Part shown: positions 2,379 through 26,428 of the stretch, piece after piece | How positions within the stretch are numbered: the first letter of the stretch is position 1 | Layout: each line of letters starts with the position of its first letter | DNA from: Promethearchaeota archaeon | GTDB taxonomy: Archaea; Asgardarchaeota; Lokiarchaeia; Sigyniarchaeales; SOKP01 | DNA length: 64,000 nucleotides | Assembly: GCA_048939995.1 (NCBI GenBank) | Contig: JBHLOY010000002.1 | Span: 352,001 to 416,000, forward strand | Direction of reading: 5' to 3' | Made by a program: the position numbers and the translations under genes | The notes under the pieces: generated by a model | The model's input: only the letters and a program-made list of their open reading frames with translations | Told to the model about the DNA's origin: nothing | The model's database searches: none

Positions 2379-4115
2379 CTATATTTTGGGTTCATTAATT
2401 CCAAATGGTACCATATCATCTAGTAATGATAGAATCTTTTCTCGTTCAGGCTCTTTAAGTTCAGCATTAATGAGATCAAGAACGATTTGAAGAGTAACAG
2501 TCTCTTTCAAGTAGGAAATTCTTAGATCTTCATTATTCGCATCAAGGACTAAAATCTTATTTTTTCCTTCAGTCATATCCCAAGGAGGCCAATGAGGTAG
2601 GTTATCTCCGTTTGGATTTCCTGATCTCGCGAAATTGGCTAGATAATTCATACATAAATCTGTCAGCTTTTCCCTACTACGTCGATTACTTTTAGTAAAG
2701 GTGTTTCCAATCATCATTGATAACCGCCCCATCCCCATCCCTAAGAAGAAAGGAATCTCTGCTGCGTGGTGAGCACCCAAGTCTCGACCCTTTTGTTTGG
2801 GAAGAACGCTAACACCTTCATTATCTGGACTTCCCCAATCAAACCGGTACGCATAAACAGGTACATTTGAATTTGAAGTCATTGGACACACTAAGGAATC
2901 GAGGCCACTCACACGCCAAAGTAGGGAACGATAACCCCAGATCAAGTCATATTCTCTTGTACGATGTGGAGGATCCTTTCTAAAGTAGCCAAAGAGTTTT
3001 AATTCATCTTTATTACAACCAATAATTAATGGAACCATATTCGCCCACTCTCCAGTTGAAAACACCGCATACCCTTCCTTCGGTATTACAATACCATCGG
3101 TAAAAATAGTTCGCCATTCTGCCATTCCAAAATCCATAGTAGAGATACTTTTTGTAATTTCAAACCCAGATTTTGAGCGAAGATATTCATTAATCTCTTG
3201 TTCCGACATTTTTCCGATAAGCTGCTCTGCTTCTTCTTGATTCTCAACTTTACGATCTTTGATTAGAAGATTCATAAGAAGTTTAATACTTTGGGCTTTT
3301 GCAGTGTCAATACTCCAAATAAAAGATAATCCACTTTCAGCGATTGCACGATGGAAAAGGCCTTTTGCATTTGGAGAAATAAGGAGTGAAAGAACATTAA
3401 AGGCACCACCAGATTCTCCTGCGATAGTAATATTATCAGGATCGCCTCCAAATGCTTTAATATTGTCTCTTACCCATTCCAAGGCTTTTATTAGATCAAG
3501 AGTTCCAAAATTGCCACTTTTGTCTTCAAGAGAGCCACTATCTGTTATTGCAGGATGTGTAAACCAACCCATTACTCCAAGACGGTAATTAACTGATATA
3601 TATAATAAGTTAGAGTTCTCAGCTACTGCATTACCATAATATGCGACATCCGCAGAGCTACCAATTGAGTTTCCTCCCCCATGGATATAGAAATAAACTG
3701 GTAATTTATTCTCCAGAGTTTTCGGACGCCAAACGTTGAGATAAAGACAATCCTCCGAACCAATCGGGCCCAGAATGGTCATTACTTGTGCAGCAGAGTT
3801 CCCAAACTTTCTTACTTTGCGTATTCCAACCCATGGAATAGGATCAAGAGGTGCTTTCCATCGGAGTAGTCCTTCTGGTGGAGTTGCATATGGGATTCCC
3901 TTCCAACACCAAGATTCTCTATCTGAGAAACCTGATATCAAACCATACTTAGTTTGGACAAGAGGATCATTATTCCATGAACCAATTTTAAAGGTAGAGT
4001 TAGATGGCTTTAATCTTTTAAAATGCTTAATATAAGGAGATAGAGCCCTTGTAACTAAATTACCAAATCTAATAAAGGGAATGAACAAGTAAACCAACTT
4101 CATTAATAAACGCAT
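2379..4115 (-). CDS. Type-B carboxylesterase (p-nitrobenzyl esterase family)
   Basis: GIPYA, SEDCLYLNVW, HGGG oxyanion hole, GESGG nucleophile elbow, GAHHAAEI catalytic His. Confidence 0.93.
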   Translation of the reverse strand: MRLLMKLVYLFIPFIRFGNLVTRALSPYIKHFKRLKPSNSTFKIGSWNNDPLVQTKYGLISGFSDRESWCWKGIPYATPPEGLLRWKAPLDPIPWVGIRKVRKFGNSAAQVMTILGPIGSEDCLYLNVWRPKTLENKLPVYFYIHGGGNSIGSSADVAYYGNAVAENSNLLYISVNYRLGVMGWFTHPAITDSGSLEDKSGNFGTLDLIKALEWVRDNIKAFGGDPDNITIAGESGGAFNVLSLLISPNAKGLFHRAIAESGLSFIWSIDTAKAQSIKLLMNLLIKDRKVENQEEAEQLIGKMSEQEINEYLRSKSGFEITKSISTMDFGMAEWRTIFTDGIVIPKEGYAVFSTGEWANMVPLIIGCNKDELKLFGYFRKDPPHRTREYDLIWGYRSLLWRVSGLDSLVCPMTSNSNVPVYAYRFDWGSPDNEGVSVLPKQKGRDLGAHHAAEIPFFLGMGMGRLSMMIGNTFTKSNRRSREKLTDLCMNYLANFARSGNPNGDNLPHWPPWDMTEGKNKILVLDANNEDLRISYLKETVTLQIVLDLINAELKEPEREKILSLLDDMVPFGINEPKI

Positions 4116-18365: not shown

Positions 18366-18586
18366 TCAATTAAAGCCTTATGGATATAAATGAGCAGACC
18401 ATTAAGATCGTTCTGGAGTATATCCTTTTGCTCTTCTGGAGTAAGATAGCTAAATAAGCGTTCCTCGAAAATATCTTGGATTTGGATAAAGAAGAAATGA
18501 AAATCTTTGTAATATGGTAATTTTGATGAAGTAATTGGTATAAATTTTAAATATTTCCCCGTCTTAATTGCATCTTTGAACTCCAA
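18287..18586 (-). pseudogene. Probable gene fragment
   Basis: Overlaps CPBP gene end; its 5' part coincides with a promoter-like repeat on the other strand. Confidence 0.3.
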
Positions 18587-18589
18587 TAT
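18533..18589 (+). promoter_or_regulatory. 57-bp promoter-like element, copy 1 (upstream of proS)
   Basis: 50/57 identical to 23763..23819; contains TATA-like ttaaatat. Confidence 0.55.
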
Positions 18590-18669
18590 AAAATAGAATT
18601 CTAATTTAAATTAATTATCACTTTCAGTTTAAAGTCGAAATTAAAAAAAATATGAGGAAATGAAACTAT

Positions 18670-20217
18670 ATGGGGAAGAAGGCAAAGGAATCACTAGTTA
18701 ATTCCATGAAAAAACTACCTGATCGTGAATCAAATTTTACGGACTGGTTAAATGCTGTATTATTAAGATCGGACGTGCTGGACTATAGATATAACCTTAA
18801 AGGTTGTGGAGTCTGGCGTGGTTATGGGTTCAAATTAAGGAAATTGGTCATGCAAATCATACGCGATTTATTGGATACCACACTTATTCCCCATGAAGAA
18901 TATTTATTCCCATTGCTGGTACCCGAACCCCAATTTATGAAGGAAGCTCAATATGTTAAAGGATTCGAGGATGAAGTATACTGGGTCACACACGGAGGAT
19001 TAACACCTCTCGCCGTGAAACTGGCAGTTAGACCTACCAGTGAAACTGCAATTTACCCAATGTTCTCTCTTTGGGTACGTTCTCACCAAGATTTGCCCCT
19101 GAAAACCTACCAAATTGTAAATATTTTCCGGTTTGAGGGTAAAAATACCCGTCCACTCATTAGAGTTAGGGAAGTAACCACATTTAAAGAAGCACATACA
19201 GTTCATTCAAGCGCGAAGGAATGTGAAAACCAGATCAGAGAAGCAATCGCTGTTTACAGCGAATTTTTTGATACCCTAGGATTATCATATATAATTAATA
19301 GGAGACCTGAGTGGGATAAATTTCCTGGTGCTGATTATACAATAGCATATGATGTAATATTTCCAGGTCGCCATCTTGCTTTACAAATTGGAACAGTGCA
19401 TAATTTGGGTCAAACGTTTTCTAAAACGTTTGATATTAAATTTGAAAATAACAATGGGAAAATTGAATATGCCTATCAAACATGTTATGGAATTAGTGAA
19501 CGTATTATAGCTTCGGTGATCGGGCTTCATGGTGATGACAATGGAATGATATTGCCTGCGCACATCGCCCCCATCCAAATTGTAATTGTACCCATAATTT
19601 TCAAGGAATCCGAAGAAGAATTACTCAAAGAAAGCAAAAAATTGGAAATTTTTCTCAAAAAAGAAGATTTTAGAGTGTTACTTGATGATAGAAATTTAAA
19701 TCCAGGTTCAAAATACTATTATTGGGAGTTGAAAGGAGTTCCTATACGAATTGAAATTGGTCCAAAAGATATTGCGAATAAACAAGTCGTTTTAGTCAGA
19801 AGGGATACGAATAAAAAAATCAAGATAGCAAATACAGAAATTGAGTTGATTAAGAAAATAAGGGACACTTTCAGTGAAATAAAGAATAATCAAACACAGA
19901 AAATCTCCAACCACACAAAAAAACTTCTCTTCAGAACTAAAGACTTGAACGAAGGTTTGAGATATGTAGAAAAAGATAAAGGAATAGTTGAGATTCCATT
20001 TTGTGGTTCGGAGGAATGTGCTTCAGAGATTGAAAAAAAGGTTGAAAAATTGAAATTCTTAGGAATCCCAGCCAGATATTTGGATTTTCTGGATTTTTCG
20101 GACGGAAAACTTGGGAAAAATATAATGAATGCGGAGATGCCCGAAAAAGAAGAGATATTTTGTGTGATATGTTCACGGAGGACAAATGAGTACTGGACAA
20201 TCGGAAGAAGTTATTGA
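18670..20217 (+). CDS. proS: Proline--tRNA ligase (archaeal/eukaryotic type)
   Basis: RPTSETAIY, FRFE..TRPLIRVRE, QIGTVHNLG, CYGISER, WELKGVPIRIEIGPKD, C-terminal Zn motif. Confidence 0.97.
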   Translation: MGKKAKESLVNSMKKLPDRESNFTDWLNAVLLRSDVLDYRYNLKGCGVWRGYGFKLRKLVMQIIRDLLDTTLIPHEEYLFPLLVPEPQFMKEAQYVKGFEDEVYWVTHGGLTPLAVKLAVRPTSETAIYPMFSLWVRSHQDLPLKTYQIVNIFRFEGKNTRPLIRVREVTTFKEAHTVHSSAKECENQIREAIAVYSEFFDTLGLSYIINRRPEWDKFPGADYTIAYDVIFPGRHLALQIGTVHNLGQTFSKTFDIKFENNNGKIEYAYQTCYGISERIIASVIGLHGDDNGMILPAHIAPIQIVIVPIIFKESEEELLKESKKLEIFLKKEDFRVLLDDRNLNPGSKYYYWELKGVPIRIEIGPKDIANKQVVLVRRDTNKKIKIANTEIELIKKIRDTFSEIKNNQTQKISNHTKKLLFRTKDLNEGLRYVEKDKGIVEIPFCGSEECASEIEKKVEKLKFLGIPARYLDFLDFSDGKLGKNIMNAEMPEKEEIFCVICSRRTNEYWTIGRSY

Positions 20218-20900: not shown

Positions 20901-23093
20901 TCAAATTTTTCTTTTACTGAAATTTCTCTTTTCCTGATACCATTTGAGACCACCAAGTAATACAAAAATCGGAAAAATCAATGTAATTACTAAGAATGAA
21001 TCCAAATCGTAGGGTGGCACCATATATTCAGCTATAACTGTTACACTTAAAGAAATTAAACCTAGGATACCCGCACCTATCATAAACCCTCCTCCAACAG
21101 TTTTTTTACCAGTAAAACTTAAGATTGCTCCGATTAAACCTAAAACTCCTATAAGTAAAGGCAAAACAAAAGGCAAAACATAAATGGGACGCATCCTTAA
21201 AAAAAAGGGAATCATCTCAACAAACATAGCGGCTATAAGAAGGCCACTCCCAATTACGCCTAATATAGGACTTACCTCTTCTTTACTACTAGCTTTCATC
21301 CTAAGAGGAGCCAATAATTTTTCCCGTCTTTTCCTTGGCACTAAAATTCCACCAATTAGTATTAAGAACGGATAAATCAGTGTAATTAGATATAGCGCAT
21401 CCGTATCGTATGGCGGAAAAAATCTTTCAACTAAAGCCAACACACCTACAAACATTAAACCTAGGCTGCCTGCCCCTATCATAAGGCCTCCTCCAAGACC
21501 TCCTTTAACCTTAAAACTTAAAGTTGCTCCAATTAAGCCTAAAACCCCACAGCCAATAAAAGGCACAAGAGCGAGTCTACTAAAAGAGGGAGTTACTGGT
21601 ACGATAAATGTGGCGACTATAAGAAGAGAACTCCCAATTACGCCAAAAGCAAGACCTGCAGGTTCTTTACCTTTAATTAAAATAACTCTAGAATTTCGCC
21701 AAAATTGTTTTGGCACCAAAAAAATTGTAAGTATGCTGATTGTTACAATTGAAAGTAAACTAATTAGAAAGATTAAGCTATTCACTAGTGCCATTAATGG
21801 TACTGGTTCTATTGGTTCTTCTTGACCATAAGTGCAATCACCATTATCACTAAAAGTATTTCCTTGGCTATTTTCCTCTGAGATGCACTCAAAATTTCCC
21901 AGTAAGGTGTTTCCAGATACGGTATTATAATTACTGTAATAAAATAATATCCCACCTAAATTATTATTTGCGCTGTTTCCCGAAATGATGTTATTATCAG
22001 CATAATATAAATATATCCCAAAGGAGTTGCTATTTGCGGTGTTTCCCGAAATGGTATTATAATTACTCTCAGATAAAGATATCCCAAGTGAATTGTCATT
22101 TGTGATGTTCCCTGAAACTATGCTATTATGGCAATCATCTAATGATATCCCATCAGAGGAATTGTTATTTGCGGTGTTTCCCGAAATGATGTTATTATTA
22201 CAAAGGGCTAAATATATCCCAAGAGAGTTAAAATTCGCGATGTTTCCCAAAACTGTGTTAACATTACAAATAACTAAAATTATCCCTATAAGGTTGTTAC
22301 TTACAGTGTTTCCTGAAATGACATTATTATCACAATTGTATAGATATATTCCATCTGAATTGTTATATGCAGTATTTCCCGAAATGATATTGTTATCACA
22401 ATTGTATAGATATATTCCGTCTGAATTGTTATTTGCGGTATTTCCCGAAATGATATTATTATTAGAAGATTTTAAATGAATCCCAAGTGAATTGTTATTT
22501 GCAATATTCCCCGAAACCATGTTATTATTACAATTGTTTAAACTTATCCCATATGAGTTGTTATTTGCAGTGTTTCCCGATATTGTGTTATTATTGCAAA
22601 TATCTAAATGGATTCCTCTGGCGCTAAATGAACAATTATTTATAATTAATTTTCCTTTAGTTACATAGCTTAATTTGATACCTGCGTTTTGAGATCCAGC
22701 ATTATAAAGCGTACAATTCTCAATCCTAAAGTATACAGCAGAATTTTCAATCAAGATACAATTCCCCGAACCTCCTCCATCTATCACCAAATCTTCTATA
22801 ACAAATGGGTTGTGATAGGTGCCATTCCCAGTACATATTCCTTTTCCTTCCGCAGCCGTCCAATTATTATTAATATGAATTTTTCCCGAGATATCTGAGA
22901 TTTTCAAATCATTTATATCAGGGGTAAGATCATCTTTATAGCCCAAATTTCTGTTATCGTCCATTATATAACTAAAATTAGTGATAACTATTATTGGTAC
23001 AATAAACATAGCAACTATGAGAAGAGAGCTTCCTATTACACCTAAAATAGAACCAACAAGTTCTTTACCTTTGACTTTCATCCGAAGGTTCAA
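20901..23093 (-). CDS. NosD-like parallel beta-helix protein with multi-TM C-terminus
   Basis: 22-aa repeats GIYLYNCDNNIISGNTAxNNS; GxGTxxNPFVIE lead motif; repeated TM modules. Confidence 0.85.
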   Translation of the reverse strand: MNLRMKVKGKELVGSILGVIGSSLLIVAMFIVPIIVITNFSYIMDDNRNLGYKDDLTPDINDLKISDISGKIHINNNWTAAEGKGICTGNGTYHNPFVIEDLVIDGGGSGNCILIENSAVYFRIENCTLYNAGSQNAGIKLSYVTKGKLIINNCSFSARGIHLDICNNNTISGNTANNNSYGISLNNCNNNMVSGNIANNNSLGIHLKSSNNNIISGNTANNNSDGIYLYNCDNNIISGNTAYNNSDGIYLYNCDNNVISGNTVSNNLIGIILVICNVNTVLGNIANFNSLGIYLALCNNNIISGNTANNNSSDGISLDDCHNSIVSGNITNDNSLGISLSESNYNTISGNTANSNSFGIYLYYADNNIISGNSANNNLGGILFYYSNYNTVSGNTLLGNFECISEENSQGNTFSDNGDCTYGQEEPIEPVPLMALVNSLIFLISLLSIVTISILTIFLVPKQFWRNSRVILIKGKEPAGLAFGVIGSSLLIVATFIVPVTPSFSRLALVPFIGCGVLGLIGATLSFKVKGGLGGGLMIGAGSLGLMFVGVLALVERFFPPYDTDALYLITLIYPFLILIGGILVPRKRREKLLAPLRMKASSKEEVSPILGVIGSGLLIAAMFVEMIPFFLRMRPIYVLPFVLPLLIGVLGLIGAILSFTGKKTVGGGFMIGAGILGLISLSVTVIAEYMVPPYDLDSFLVITLIFPIFVLLGGLKWYQEKRNFSKRKI
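21900..22620 (-). repeat. About 66-bp tandem repeats encoding beta-helix turns
   Basis: Recurrent tttcccgaaatg...ttattatcacaattg units with about 66-nt period. Confidence 0.8.
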
Positions 23094-23301
23094 ACACTCT
23101 GTTGTTTTTGGATTTCATTTTCCGAATAAAAATAAATTACATTAGACAACACTGTCTTAAAAACCTTTTTACAAAATTATAAAGATCTTTTTATGAATTT
23201 TTAAAGCTATTTTCTAAACTTAATTAGAGCCACATGCTAATTATGAGGATTTTTGGAAAGAATACGTAAACGATCTTAAAAAGAGATACTATAAAGTCAT
23301 T

Positions 23302-23705
23302 TTGCAACAAAAAAAAGATGTAAATAATTATATTATTTATATCGATAAGGAACAATATCTCCAGGCTCTTAAAGATAAGATAAAGAAATTAAAAGCAAAA
23401 GGAGATAAAACCAATCTAAGAAATTACGGTTGGCTTATCTTAGGGGTGCTTATGATGCAGATGGATTTAGTAATCGTACAAGCCTTAGTAGTTTTAGTAG
23501 AGAATACTTAAAACAAATTAGAGATATTTTCAACATTCCATATCCAGTTCGTCTACATAAAGAAAGGTATAGCTATCTCGATACAAATGGAAATCTACAT
23601 GTTCGGAAGTCACATTGGGTCTTAACCCTCGGTGTTAATTTGTTTAAGGAGATGACTAATTTATGTTCTGATTATGGTTTGGATTTAAAAAGGAAAAATA
23701 AGTAG
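23302..23705 (+). pseudogene. Frameshifted/truncated free-standing LAGLIDADG homing endonuclease remnant
   Basis: AYLRGAYDADG motif at 23433-23465; upstream coding-like sequence in another frame (shift near 23425). Confidence 0.65.
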
Positions 23706-23759
23706 AAGGGTAAATAAATTTAATAAAAAAGTTAGTTTCCAGTAAATACTTGTTCTTTT
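23616..23759 (+). repeat. Imperfect direct repeat, copy 1 (LAGLIDADG C-terminus + copy of fwdA 3' end)
   Basis: Aligns with 24575..24704; shares ttagtttccagtaaata exactly. Confidence 0.75.
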
Positions 23760-23762
23760 ACA

Positions 23763-23819
23763 AATTAGTATAAATCTTAAATATTCCCTCTTCTTAATTG
23801 CATTCTTGAACTCCAATAT
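23763..23819 (+). promoter_or_regulatory. 57-bp promoter-like element, copy 2
   Basis: 50/57 identical to 18533..18589; ends 24 nt before ATG 23844. Confidence 0.6.
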
Positions 23820-23843
23820 TAAGTTTTAATTTGGTGAAATTCA

Positions 23844-24518
23844 ATGAAAAAATCTAAATTAAAAATTCTAATTCCATTAACATTAGGAATCTTGTTCCTT
23901 AGCCTTACCTCAACCGTTAATGTTGTGGCTGATCCTTCAACAGTAACTTTTAGACCATTAAGTCATTGGATACTTAATAATCCCAGAGTGTCCTATGGTT
24001 GGGGAGGCCAACCCCCAACAGGTGATCTGCCTTTATATATCTTAATGTTGAGTTATCCCTGGGCTATACCTGATCCCAATACATATGATGGCTACATAAT
24101 GGAAAGAACGTTGAAAGACGGAAGAGCAGAACTTACTGTTTACATAGAATTCTTCAATGCCCCCTTTTGGCTTTTTGGATTTTTACCGGATATTGGGTTA
24201 TTCCCCCTTGTTCTACAACAAGGTTCTATGATTAATTGTAGGGAAACCACCAAATTTACTCTTCCTGAACCCGGCATGGTAATCCCAAACTTATTTGAAA
24301 TATTATATAATTTTGATTTAATTATGATTTCAATAGAGGGAACGGGTGCTGGGATTTTTACGACGGAGGCTTCTATAATAGGATTTACACCTGGGGCTCA
24401 ATGTAAGGTAGTTGTTAACCAACGTGGCTTTGGGTGGATGGACGTTTTACCTCTACCTCCACCCTTGGAGAATTATATGCCTATAGAACTAATAAACGTT
24501 CTTGAAATTGGGGATTAA
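23844..24518 (+). CDS. Secreted hypothetical protein
   Basis: Signal peptide MKKSKLKILIPLTLGILFLSL; poly-T tract downstream. Confidence 0.75.
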   Translation: MKKSKLKILIPLTLGILFLSLTSTVNVVADPSTVTFRPLSHWILNNPRVSYGWGGQPPTGDLPLYILMLSYPWAIPDPNTYDGYIMERTLKDGRAELTVYIEFFNAPFWLFGFLPDIGLFPLVLQQGSMINCRETTKFTLPEPGMVIPNLFEILYNFDLIMISIEGTGAGIFTTEASIIGFTPGAQCKVVVNQRGFGWMDVLPLPPPLENYMPIELINVLEIGD

Positions 24519-24574
24519 AACAGAGAAAAAAATAGTTATAACTTTTTTTTTTTATCAAGAGATTCCAGAAATGT

Positions 24575-24704
24575 TGGGTGTTATCTTTCAGTGTTGATTT
24601 TTTTAAGGAACTACCTAATTTATCTTCTAATTATGGTTTGGGTTTAAAAGCAAAAATAAATAGATTTAATAAAAAGTTAGTTTCCAGTAAATATTTTCTC
24701 TTTT
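24575..24704 (+). repeat. Imperfect direct repeat, copy 2 (overlaps the real fwdA stop)
   Basis: Encodes WVLSFSVDFFKELPNLSSNYGLGLK versus WVLTLGVNLFKEMTNLCSDYGLDLK in copy 1. Confidence 0.75.
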
Positions 24705-26428
24705 GGGGCGTAGGCATCTTGGACAGCATAATTGTTAAAGTTGATGCTATAATGATCCCTCCAGCTATGGCGCACATCATCTAACATCTCCTCCATGAGG
24801 CTCTCCTTAAGCTTACCTTCTGCTCGAAGTAAATTCCCCATCGGTGATGCTGTAATCTCTCCGTCTTTCACCACAATTATTCCATCCTTAATTGTATATG
24901 CCGTCGAGCTAAATGCCTTCTCAATATCATGCCCAGTATAATTGTTAGGATCAATCTTATACACTGCCACGTCTCCAATAGCGCCCACACCGAGATGACC
25001 GCGATCTTTCATTCCCAGAATCTTCGAAGTTCCAGCGCGGGTTACCACAGCCAGTTCATAAAGCGAATATTCCCTGTCGATGTCTGCCAACGTAGACGCC
25101 GTGCTTGCTTTCTTATGGACCACATTTTTGAGCATGTCATCTCGAGTTTTCCTATCCATCAACCATTTGAAGGCCATCGGATACGTGGTAAACGGGGCTC
25201 CATTTGGATGGTCGGTCGTAAATCCGATTTGAAAAGGATCCTTTACCAAAAGCATAAGCTCAAGACCAATTGCCCATTGAACCGCATTTACGCTATTTTT
25301 TGCATCAAAAAAATACGGAACTATCCCTGATCCTGATTCTGCTTCAACTTGGCCGTTAACCCACTTAATACCCGGCTTAGATCCCCAACCTGAAAAACCA
25401 CCTAAATGATGGAGAGCAAACTCTCATGCACAGACAAGATGCTCGTCTGTGACCCATGGTCCGTCTCCAGTCATCGTAGTGGTCGCATATTTAGTGAATA
25501 CTACTTGACCGTTATCAATCGTAAGATGCTTATGTGAATTCACATACTCAGCAATTTCTACGGCACCAGAAGTAAAGTCATTCCAATTAGTGCCTCCATA
25601 TGCATTAAATTGACAATGAGTCACATGAAGACTTGTTGTTCGGCTATCACCAGCCTTGATTTTCTCACAGACTTGAAAGGTTTCGAGAGAATGCTTGAAA
25701 TTGCCGGGATGTCCGAGATTGTTGCAATGGACATGAATTGAATGTGGTAATTTCAGAATCTCGTTAACCTTCGCTAGACTCTCAATAATCTGACGAGGAG
25801 TTACATTCCAATGGAAAACAGGATCATTTAAAGATTCACAATTCTTGCCCCAAGCCCAATTTTCAACCCCCCCAGGATTTACAATTTTTATAGCATAGCC
25901 TTTGGTTGCTTGGAGGATCCAATTGACGTATGCGGCGAGCTTATCGATGTCGTTGTCGCGTATATATTTCAGGACGAACCAATTATTTCCATAGATGGGG
26001 AGGGCAGCTTTATCGATGATTGGCATTTCGAGGAATTCTTCATGGGTATGTCGAGCTTCGAGGAGAGGCATTGCGGGTTCGACAGCGGTTGTATAGCCCA
26101 TTTGGGCATATTTATAACCTGTATACCAAGTGCTAAGCACGCTGAACCCGGTACCGGATCGTGTAGTTTTAGTTTTCTTTAGGTTCGATTCGGGCACCTT
26201 GTCTTCAGGTCGTAAAGCTCGTCCGACATTGACTTTAGGTCCAGCAATGTGAGTGTGCATATCAACTCCACCAGGCATTACGACCATTCCAGAAGCATCG
26301 ATTACTTTTGCGTCAGAGTTAACTTTTTCGGCGATAAGTCCATCTTTTATATAGATATCTTTCTTTTCGCCATCGATCTTATTGAGCGGGTCATATACCA
26401 ATCCATTTTTAATGATTAAGTTGCTCAT
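24677..26428 (-). CDS. fwdA: Formylmethanofuran dehydrogenase subunit A, intron-split (exon1 26428..25453, exon2 25422..24677; 573 aa after splicing)
   Basis: PGGVDMHTHIAG, KIVNPGG, HVHCNNLG, HVTHCQF, TTTMTGDGPW|EFALHH, SGIVP, QWAIGLEL, TTDHPNGAPF; both annotated ORFs share one frame, separated by a single UGA. Confidence 0.92.
25423..25452 (-). other. 30-nt bulge-helix-bulge (archaeal-type) intron in fwdA mRNA
   Basis: RNA GGAC-CAUG-GG^U-CACAGACGAG-CAU-CUUGUCUGUG-CAUG-AG^A-GUUU: 4-bp helix, two 3-nt bulges, 10-bp intron stem; excision yields GGA CCA UGG GAG UUU. Confidence 0.88.

Follow-up and report, generated by a model that had tools for sequence, protein, structure and literature searches.

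A decayed LAGLIDADG endonuclease gene beside a 30-nucleotide bulge-helix-bulge intron in fwdA of an Asgard archaeon: components of a possible two-part mobile system

The window considered here, a stretch of 64,000 nucleotides (nt) from the genome of a Promethearchaeota archaeon, contains on its minus strand the methanogenesis-type gene fwdA (24677-26428), whose one reading frame is interrupted by a single TGA (25424-25426), and on its plus strand an open reading frame (ORF; 23430-23705), LAYLRGAYDADGFS..., that converges on the fwdA 3' end. An earlier note on this DNA, made from the letters alone, had proposed that fwdA contains a 30-nt intron, that the converging ORF is what is left of a free-standing LAGLIDADG endonuclease gene, and that the two once formed a mobile system in which the enzyme cut intronless fwdA alleles and the intron conferred immunity. 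Here we characterize both components in this genome, designated G000, and in the relatives compared with it, designated by other G numbers, and weigh the proposal against other accounts of the same locus.

The fwdA product aligns over its full length with FwdA of the solved structures 5t5i and 9sw6 (E ~1e-195), leaving a 10-residue gap that falls exactly over the residues VTDEHLVCA and the stop that follows them, between the conserved motifs TTTMTGDGPW and EFALHH. We delimit in the minus strand exon 1 (25453-26428; Amidohydro_3 match E 4e-35), a bulge-helix-bulge (BHB) mini-intron of 30 nt (25423-25452) that contains the TGA, and exon 2 including the stop codon (24677-25422), which continues the reading frame of exon 1 when the insert is taken out. 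RNA surrounding the insert folds at -42.6 kcal/mol (z -5.78; none of 200 shuffled sequences was as good) into a canonical hBHBh' arrangement, comprising an outer helix formed between the two exons, a central helix of 4 bp (CAUG/CAUG), an inner hairpin with a stem of 10 bp, and two 3-nt bulges, GGU and AGA, on opposite strands. Cuts after the second base of each bulge are predicted to excise 25423-25452 and to join TTTMTGDGPW directly to EFALHH, the arrangement present in FwdA of 5t5i and 9sw6 and in 26 intronless relatives.

In a survey of 30 fwdA loci from the same taxonomic family, a 30-nt insert at the same codon was found in four, those of G000, G109 and G121, which belong to one genus, and of G192, which belongs to another; at the remaining 26 of the 30 the sequence GG(N)CC(N)TGGGA(R)TT(Y) is unbroken. 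Comparison of the four intron sequences revealed covariation in the central helix, which reads CUUG/CAAG in G192, and inner stems in G121 and G192 that differ in sequence with pairing kept. There is, in addition, a second mini-intron site in fwdA, at WAWG/KNCES, where G109 has a stop-free BHB insert of 30 nt (L005:2084-2113) and G171, a member of another genus, an insert of 31 nt (L039:~3258-3288, minus strand).

These comparisons bear on the simplest alternative, that there is no intron at all, the TGA encoding selenocysteine, being read through or marking a fresh pseudogene, and that the LAGLIDADG-like ORF arises by chance. The TGA is indeed the only in-frame stop, and Pfam scores for the ORF fall under threshold, as detailed below. 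The ten codons around the TGA are nevertheless missing from solved FwdA proteins and from the 26 relatives, which rules out selenocysteine or read-through; the fold is both far from that of shuffled sequences and supported by covariation, and the ORF matches a family profile with an E-value of 1.8e-39. As a whole this account is scarcely credible. Sequence comparison and predicted fold instead identify the insert as a true tRNA-type BHB intron that lacks an ORF and lies in a conserved motif: it abuts TTTMTGDGPW, and its placement in TxTxDGPW by the earlier note holds.

The genes for splicing machinery in G000 comprise two with an EndA domain, and RtcB. The EndA catalytic domains, at C3:124319-124543 and C28:98308-98556, each lie within a 208-amino acid (aa) frame, and the presence of two such genes would be consistent with a splicing endonuclease that is heteromeric and broad in specificity. 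Interruption of fwdA by stops also occurs in G180 (L086:323-2017), where two in-frame stops (WL-stop-EATKG-stop) arise by substitution rather than insertion; they were rejected as introns, and this gene is probably a pseudogene or the product of an assembly error.

To define the converging ORF we used a profile of its family built from 35 sequences (508 positions). The profile matches nt 23334-23705 of the window, plus strand, in a single frame (E 1.8e-39) over positions 315-434, which represent the C-terminal domain only, with the second LAGLIDADG motif, LAYLRGAYDADG. Within the matched stretch only 23430-23705 is open, three in-frame stops lying upstream of 23430; identity to the fwdA-linked copies of relatives is 40% (G141), 41% (G171) and 34% (G109). 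No remains of motif 1 or of the N-terminal extension were found in other frames of 22600-24720, and the ORF at 23302-23511, in another frame, has no similarity to the family. Since homology stays in one frame, is broken by three stops and covers the C-terminal domain alone, we read the remnant as a 5'-truncated pseudogene rather than the frameshifted gene that had first been described; that it is a LAGLIDADG remnant converging on the fwdA 3' end is borne out by the profile match and by the fold and catalytic residues of intact orthologues. The window copy, keeping motif 2 only, is not a complete LAGLIDADG endonuclease as it stands. An HMM search against LAGLIDADG families, which the note had suggested as a check, gave a divided answer: with Pfam LAGLIDADG_3 the remnant scores 14.9 bits and the intact orthologues 21.5 and 19.1 bits, all below the cut-off of 22.5, while the family profile matches both the remnant and known LAGLIDADG enzymes, and several homologues of the remnant have precomputed Pfam matches.

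Intact orthologues occupy the same place, tail-to-tail with fwdA, in G109 (at least 495 aa) and in G141 (394-529 aa), and carry two motifs, KAYWLGFLMADGSV and LLMGYIRGYYDGDGFS; the G109 gene ends 9 nt from the fwdA stop and lies 756 nt from the ORF-less intron. In G171 a 1205-aa ORF with a LAGLIDADG domain is located upstream of fwdA. Besides these genome-placed copies, the fwdA clade includes the homologues P0004, P0005, P0006 and P0011. A contig search with the G141 protein gave matches only in G141 and G109, a metagenome search with P0005 gave nothing, and an alignment-based search retrieved distant members only, of at most 38% identity.

Searched against PDB, the family profile gave five matches at E ≤ 1, all of them LAGLIDADG enzymes, including I-HjeMI (1.1e-4), I-AniI (3.5e-4) and I-Tsp061I (0.03). 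An AF2 model of the G141 core (pLDDT 93.1, pTM 0.90) adopts a tandem alpha-beta-beta-alpha-beta-beta-alpha fold, for which Foldseek returned 130 PDB matches at E ≤ 0.001, the best 50 of the 130 all being LAGLIDADG homing enzymes or maturases (TM 0.4-0.6). The catalytic acidic residue is conserved in motif 1 (D/E) in 34 of 34 sequences and in motif 2 (D) in 35 of 35. From sequence and modelled structure, then, we assign the family to free-standing genes for monomeric, two-domain LAGLIDADG homing endonucleases of Asgard archaea (Promethearchaeia), with DNA cleavage as the predicted activity.

The family is multi-copy and scattered, occurring at about 70 places in 29 of the 61 genomes of the taxonomic family. 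G000 has two family loci only, both decayed: the fwdA remnant and a copy directly upstream of the sole EF-1alpha gene, a P-loop codon of which is split by a 33-nt insert. This second locus is informative as to whether the LAGLIDADG protein might be a maturase or regulator of the neighbouring mini-intron and not a DNA endonuclease, a role suggested by the best structural match among those listed by Foldseek, the bI3 LAGLIDADG maturase. Because fwdA and EF-1alpha keep their introns despite dead neighbouring copies, the protein cannot be required for splicing. The family, moreover, conserves both catalytic acidic residues throughout, the bI3 maturase being a LAGLIDADG protein without DNA-cleavage activity, and BHB introns are cut by EndA, which G000 encodes. 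We consider a maturase role very improbable.

In G000 the remnant is separated from fwdA by a gene for a 224-aa protein with a signal-peptide-like start (23844-24518, plus strand), bracketed by a direct repeat of 131-146 bp overall (23615-23697/24574-24656, 80% identical; 23726-23759/24671-24704, 91%). In copy 1 (23615-23759; 77% by blastn over 145 nt) the endonuclease 3' end is followed, across a spacer of 26 nt, by a vestige of the final fwdA codons with their stop (TTA, 23732-23734). Copy 2 (24566-24704) comprises a second endonuclease 3'-end pseudogene fragment of 37 residues (24566-24676; profile positions 402-438, E 4.7e-5) that abuts the real fwdA stop (24677-24679). The duplication thus takes in the old junction of the two genes, and the vestige in copy 1 shows that the endonuclease gene formerly terminated some 26 nt away from the stop of fwdA. 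That the two abutted before the 23844 gene intervened had been proposed in the note, and both the repeats and the tail-to-tail orthologues of G109 and G141 uphold it; a segment of ~815 bp carrying the 224-aa gene was evidently inserted later between them.

The inserted gene is lineage-specific, has no Pfam or NCBIfam match and is not at the fwdA loci of relatives; distant paralogues occur elsewhere in G000. Just upstream of it, a 60-nt stretch (23763-23822) is 87% identical to 18533-18592, which lies upstream of a 515-aa ORF (18670-20217), and this repeated stretch may be a shared promoter or leader. The upstream neighbour of the remnant is a NosD-like/beta-helix repeat gene (20901-23093, minus strand; 730 aa) with two long hydrophobic C-terminal segments and several paralogues in G000 and G109; in G109 it lies several kb further from the endonuclease gene.

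The endonuclease gene of G141 forms a cassette of 1.8 kb, at a place occupied by 20 nt in G121 and 96 nt in G099, and beyond the cassette synteny among these genomes resumes at 89-94% identity. This pattern of presence and absence, like the scattered distribution of the family, speaks for a mobile gene. In a tree of C-terminal domains, copies cluster by host gene (support 0.94 for DeoC, 1.0 for AMP-binding and 0.91 for GTPase); the window remnant groups with the G141 and G109 copies (0.79) and then with that of G171 (0.95). Since this fwdA clade includes copies downstream of the gene (G109, G141 and the window) and one upstream (G171), the host gene and not the insertion point is what remains constant, a pattern that points to an enzyme target inside fwdA rather than at the endonuclease gene's own insertion site.

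The association of the family with mini-introns was assessed by a homology test that makes no use of RNA structure. For 40 family copies drawn from more than 20 genomes, the surrounding DNA (up to ±9.5 kb) was compared by tblastn with all 3615 long ORFs of G000, and short inserts were scored in orthologues of at least 45% identity. This revealed 18 stop-bearing or split inserts of 24-60 nt (mostly 30-32) in 12 of 44 loci, distributed over seven host genes: fwdA and those for a GH38 mannosidase, a DeoC-type aldolase, phosphofructokinase, an AMP-binding enzyme, a small GTPase and a zinc-ribbon protein. For all 18 the distance to the endonuclease gene is 240-1700 nt. DNA up to 3 kb from such a gene, of which 110 kb was covered by orthologues, contains every one of them; the 215 kb situated more than 3 kb away contain none, and indels there are exclusively stop-free and of low complexity. 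With a near fraction of 0.34, and counting by distinct host gene (7), the chance of all events being near is ~5e-4; the count of inserts is a lower bound, because the test detects only introns missing from the G000 orthologue. Most of the linked inserts form, when folded, a hairpin that has a symmetric internal loop and is closed by pairing between the exons, and are candidate BHBs, and an independent metagenome contig shows the same pairing of endonuclease and intron at a GH38 gene. Together these comparisons provide strong indications that the family adjoins ~30-nt mini-introns far more often than chance would allow.

Two structural descriptors were replaced by this test: a strict hBHBh' descriptor with energy scoring, which found the fwdA intron and missed the EF-1alpha, G121 and G192 introns along with most of the linked inserts, and a relaxed BHB descriptor with an ORF-restoration filter, which gave 284 matches in the genome, mostly at operon junctions, and was too noisy to use. 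Among the loci surveyed, a LAGLIDADG copy beside an intron-bearing GH38 gene (L042:9351-10280; G177 contig C9) has two in-frame stops, a dead gene with a surviving intron.

Some endonuclease genes adjoin more than one mini-intron: four at L058, two at L054 and two in fwdA of G109. In the first of these (L058:5500-5860; G224 contig C130), a Ras/Arf-like small-GTPase gene is interrupted four times in a span of ~350 nt by inserts of ~30 nt that bear stops or break the frame, at 0.4-0.7 kb from a single LAGLIDADG gene, and its orthologue at L072 has two or three. Such clusters, no more than a few hundred nt from a single endonuclease gene, raise the question of whether the enzyme itself creates introns, repeated breaks being mended with short palindromic filler from which only spliceable, BHB-forming inserts survive; the uniform insert size of ~30-32 nt and the hairpin-like architecture would agree with such an origin. 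Structurally homologous introns occupy the same site in different genera, however, and no intermediate forms were seen. We know of no precedent for introns created by an endonuclease through palindromic filler, and judge this explanation improbable.

At fwdA, endonuclease gene and intron vary from one genome to the next. The endonuclease gene is intact and accompanied by two introns in G109, dead with an intron in G000, and intact without an intron in G141; G099 has neither endonuclease gene nor intron, and G121 has an intron and no endonuclease gene on the fwdA contig. All four combinations of presence and absence are thus found in these five close relatives. Of the more remote genomes, G192 has an intron, and G171 has its endonuclease copy upstream, with the intron assigned to site A. 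An adjacent endonuclease copy is present in three of five intron-bearing genomes versus one of 26 intronless ones (uncorrected Fisher p ~0.008, with only about two independent events). On the co-occurrence that the note had asked for, the family-wide counts (18 inserts near, 0 far) point to an association, and at fwdA the proportions lean the same way with all four states present. By the first 144 residues of FwdA the closest relative of G000 is G057 (97%), whose contig ends inside fwdA and has no match to the rest of the locus.

Several of these observations, with others, weigh against a functional unit of enzyme and intron. In G141 an intact endonuclease gene adjoins an intronless fwdA. Conversely, the intron is present in G121 with no endonuclease gene on the fwdA contig, of which 2.8 kb downstream is seen, and in G192, whose assembly yields no family member at E ≤ 1e-5 and provides only 573 nt of downstream flank. 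The occurrence of all four states means that coupling at fwdA is loose and that the parts segregate independently, and the counts of intron-bearing and intronless loci treat related genomes as samples, although relatives are not independent. Immunity at a single site cannot explain up to four introns beside one endonuclease gene, as at L058. The introns of G000, G109 and G121 are, moreover, about as diverged as their host genes (22 of 30 positions identical between G109 and G121), and old vertical descent with precise intron losses would explain their histories as well as transfer does.

Two sequence details can be read in more than one way. The one visible peculiarity of the intronless G141 allele is TAC in place of TT[TC] 4-6 nt after the insertion site, a change that is unique among the 26 intronless alleles and could be, in this single case, a resistance change. 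G121 and G099 are 91% identical across fwdA, yet only G121 has the intron; over 100 nt on the 5' side of the intron site they differ at 16 positions, at 13 of which G121 matches G000 or G109. This cluster of differences may be a conversion tract, but the positions concerned belong to the exon strand of the BHB helices, and selection for RNA pairing may equally produce it. Along fwdA (L006-L008) the identity of G099 and G141 swings from 94% to 76% in 150-nt windows, that of G121 and G099 remaining steady at ~91-95%; this mosaicism suggests frequent recombination among the G099, G121 and G141 lineages.

The same observations lend some weight to the view that endonuclease gene and intron are linked but functionally independent neighbours, in which the endonuclease would home to a site of its own, the empty spacer after the fwdA stop, and the intron, of separate origin, would at most be co-converted, being neither in the cut site nor protective. 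The clean cassette boundaries at the fwdA 3' spacer are what such homing would leave; the four states among five relatives, with an endonuclease gene lacking an intron in G141 and introns lacking an endonuclease gene in G121 and G192, accord with independence; and several introns per endonuclease gene fit hitch-hiking better than immunity. Against it stand the upstream position of the G171 copy within the fwdA clade, with the host gene and not the insertion site as the constant feature, the location of mini-introns in conserved motifs, which is typical of endonuclease-driven elements, and the contrast between near and far DNA, which excludes pure chance. We regard functional independence as unlikely, if still deserving of serious attention.

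The two-part system put forward in the note thus survives in part: the identity of the remnant, its former abutment on fwdA, the BHB intron and the family-wide link speak for it, and the loose coupling in G141, G121 and G192, together with the multiple introns beside single endonuclease genes, speaks against it. In the broad sense of a loosely coupled mobile unit of endonuclease gene and mini-intron, we hold it to have an even chance of being right. The strict form, with cleavage at precisely the insertion site and immunity conferred by the intron, is a tentative proposal that we are inclined to doubt. A third and wider reading, which we would put just short of evenly balanced, is that the 30-nt mini-introns of Promethearchaeia may have spread at the DNA level through protein-coding genes, driven by free-standing LAGLIDADG endonucleases each specialised for a host gene, and that fwdA would show every stage of the cycle in five close relatives: empty, endonuclease only, endonuclease with intron, orphan intron, and dead endonuclease.

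As a mechanism for the mobile unit, we start from the ancestral state, in which the endonuclease gene lay tail-to-tail with fwdA, ~26 nt from its stop and ~0.76 kb from the 30-nt BHB intron. The enzyme would break DNA in or near fwdA of genomes without the unit, and donor-templated repair would introduce the intron, either alone or together with the 1.8-kb endonuclease cassette, the direction of transfer being presumed. The intron would be free of cost because the tRNA-splicing endonuclease and RtcB ligase of the host would remove it from mRNA, and it would probably also mask the cut site and so may confer immunity. In G000 the endonuclease gene has lost its 5' half and was later parted from fwdA by the insertion of one gene. 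With the endonuclease gene of G000 dead and separated, the fwdA intron would now be an orphan, inherited vertically.

The arrangement invites comparison with collaborative homing in phages. In cyanophage S-PM2, the free-standing endonuclease F-CphI acts together with the group I intron of psbA, itself ORF-less (Zeng, Bonocora and Shub 2009, cited from PMC6083498), and in T4, mobE drives trans-homing of the defunct I-TevIII intron (PMC2790892). There as here, a free-standing endonuclease gene adjoins a gene with an ORF-less intron, and the proposed logic is shared, in that the enzyme would supply the break while the intron can move and may protect its carrier. Unlike the phage introns, which are self-splicing group I ribozymes, the Asgard intron is a protein-spliced BHB of 30 nt; the Asgard enzyme is of the LAGLIDADG type, those of the phages Endo VII-like or HNH; and the host is an archaeal chromosome. 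In the Asgard case cleavage and immunity are predictions, and one relative has the enzyme gene and no intron.

Closer in enzyme and intron class are the LAGLIDADG homing endonucleases I-DmoI, I-Tsp061I and I-PorI, which are encoded inside archaeal rRNA BHB introns (PMC2602781, PMC4496867). They share with the family described here the enzyme fold (I-DmoI is matched by Foldseek, I-Tsp061I by the profile) and the class of EndA-spliced introns. Their genes, in contrast, lie inside long introns of rRNA genes, whereas the Asgard endonuclease gene lies outside, 0.2-1.7 kb away, and the Asgard intron is too small for any gene and interrupts one that encodes a protein. A BHB intron in coding sequence is known from the cbf5 pre-mRNA of Desulfurococcales and Sulfolobales (PMC2738675). 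It resembles the Asgard introns in its location and in its patchy gain and loss among relatives, and differs in phylum and gene, many genes being affected in the Asgard lineage. To our knowledge no endonuclease gene has been reported with the cbf5 intron.

In the literature searched, collaborative homing was described for phages with group I introns only (PMC6083498, PMC2790892), and BHB introns inside coding sequences for crenarchaeal cbf5 only (PMC2738675); no paper linking LAGLIDADG genes to Asgard mini-introns was found. At fwdA the idea can be tested directly, for the locus offers natural intact enzymes (G109, G141) and matched targets with the intron (G121) and without it (G099) that are 91% identical in nucleotide sequence.

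How protein-coding genes acquire introns has long been an open question, and no relatives nearer to eukaryotes are known than the Asgard archaea. If the proposal is true, collaborative homing, so far associated with phage group I introns only, would also operate in archaeal chromosomes with protein-spliced BHB introns, and would account for the location of mini-introns in the best-conserved motifs of core genes. The family would then be a natural source of new meganuclease specificities, and the spread of mini-introns driven by it would amount to an operating route of intron gain in the archaea most closely related to eukaryotes.

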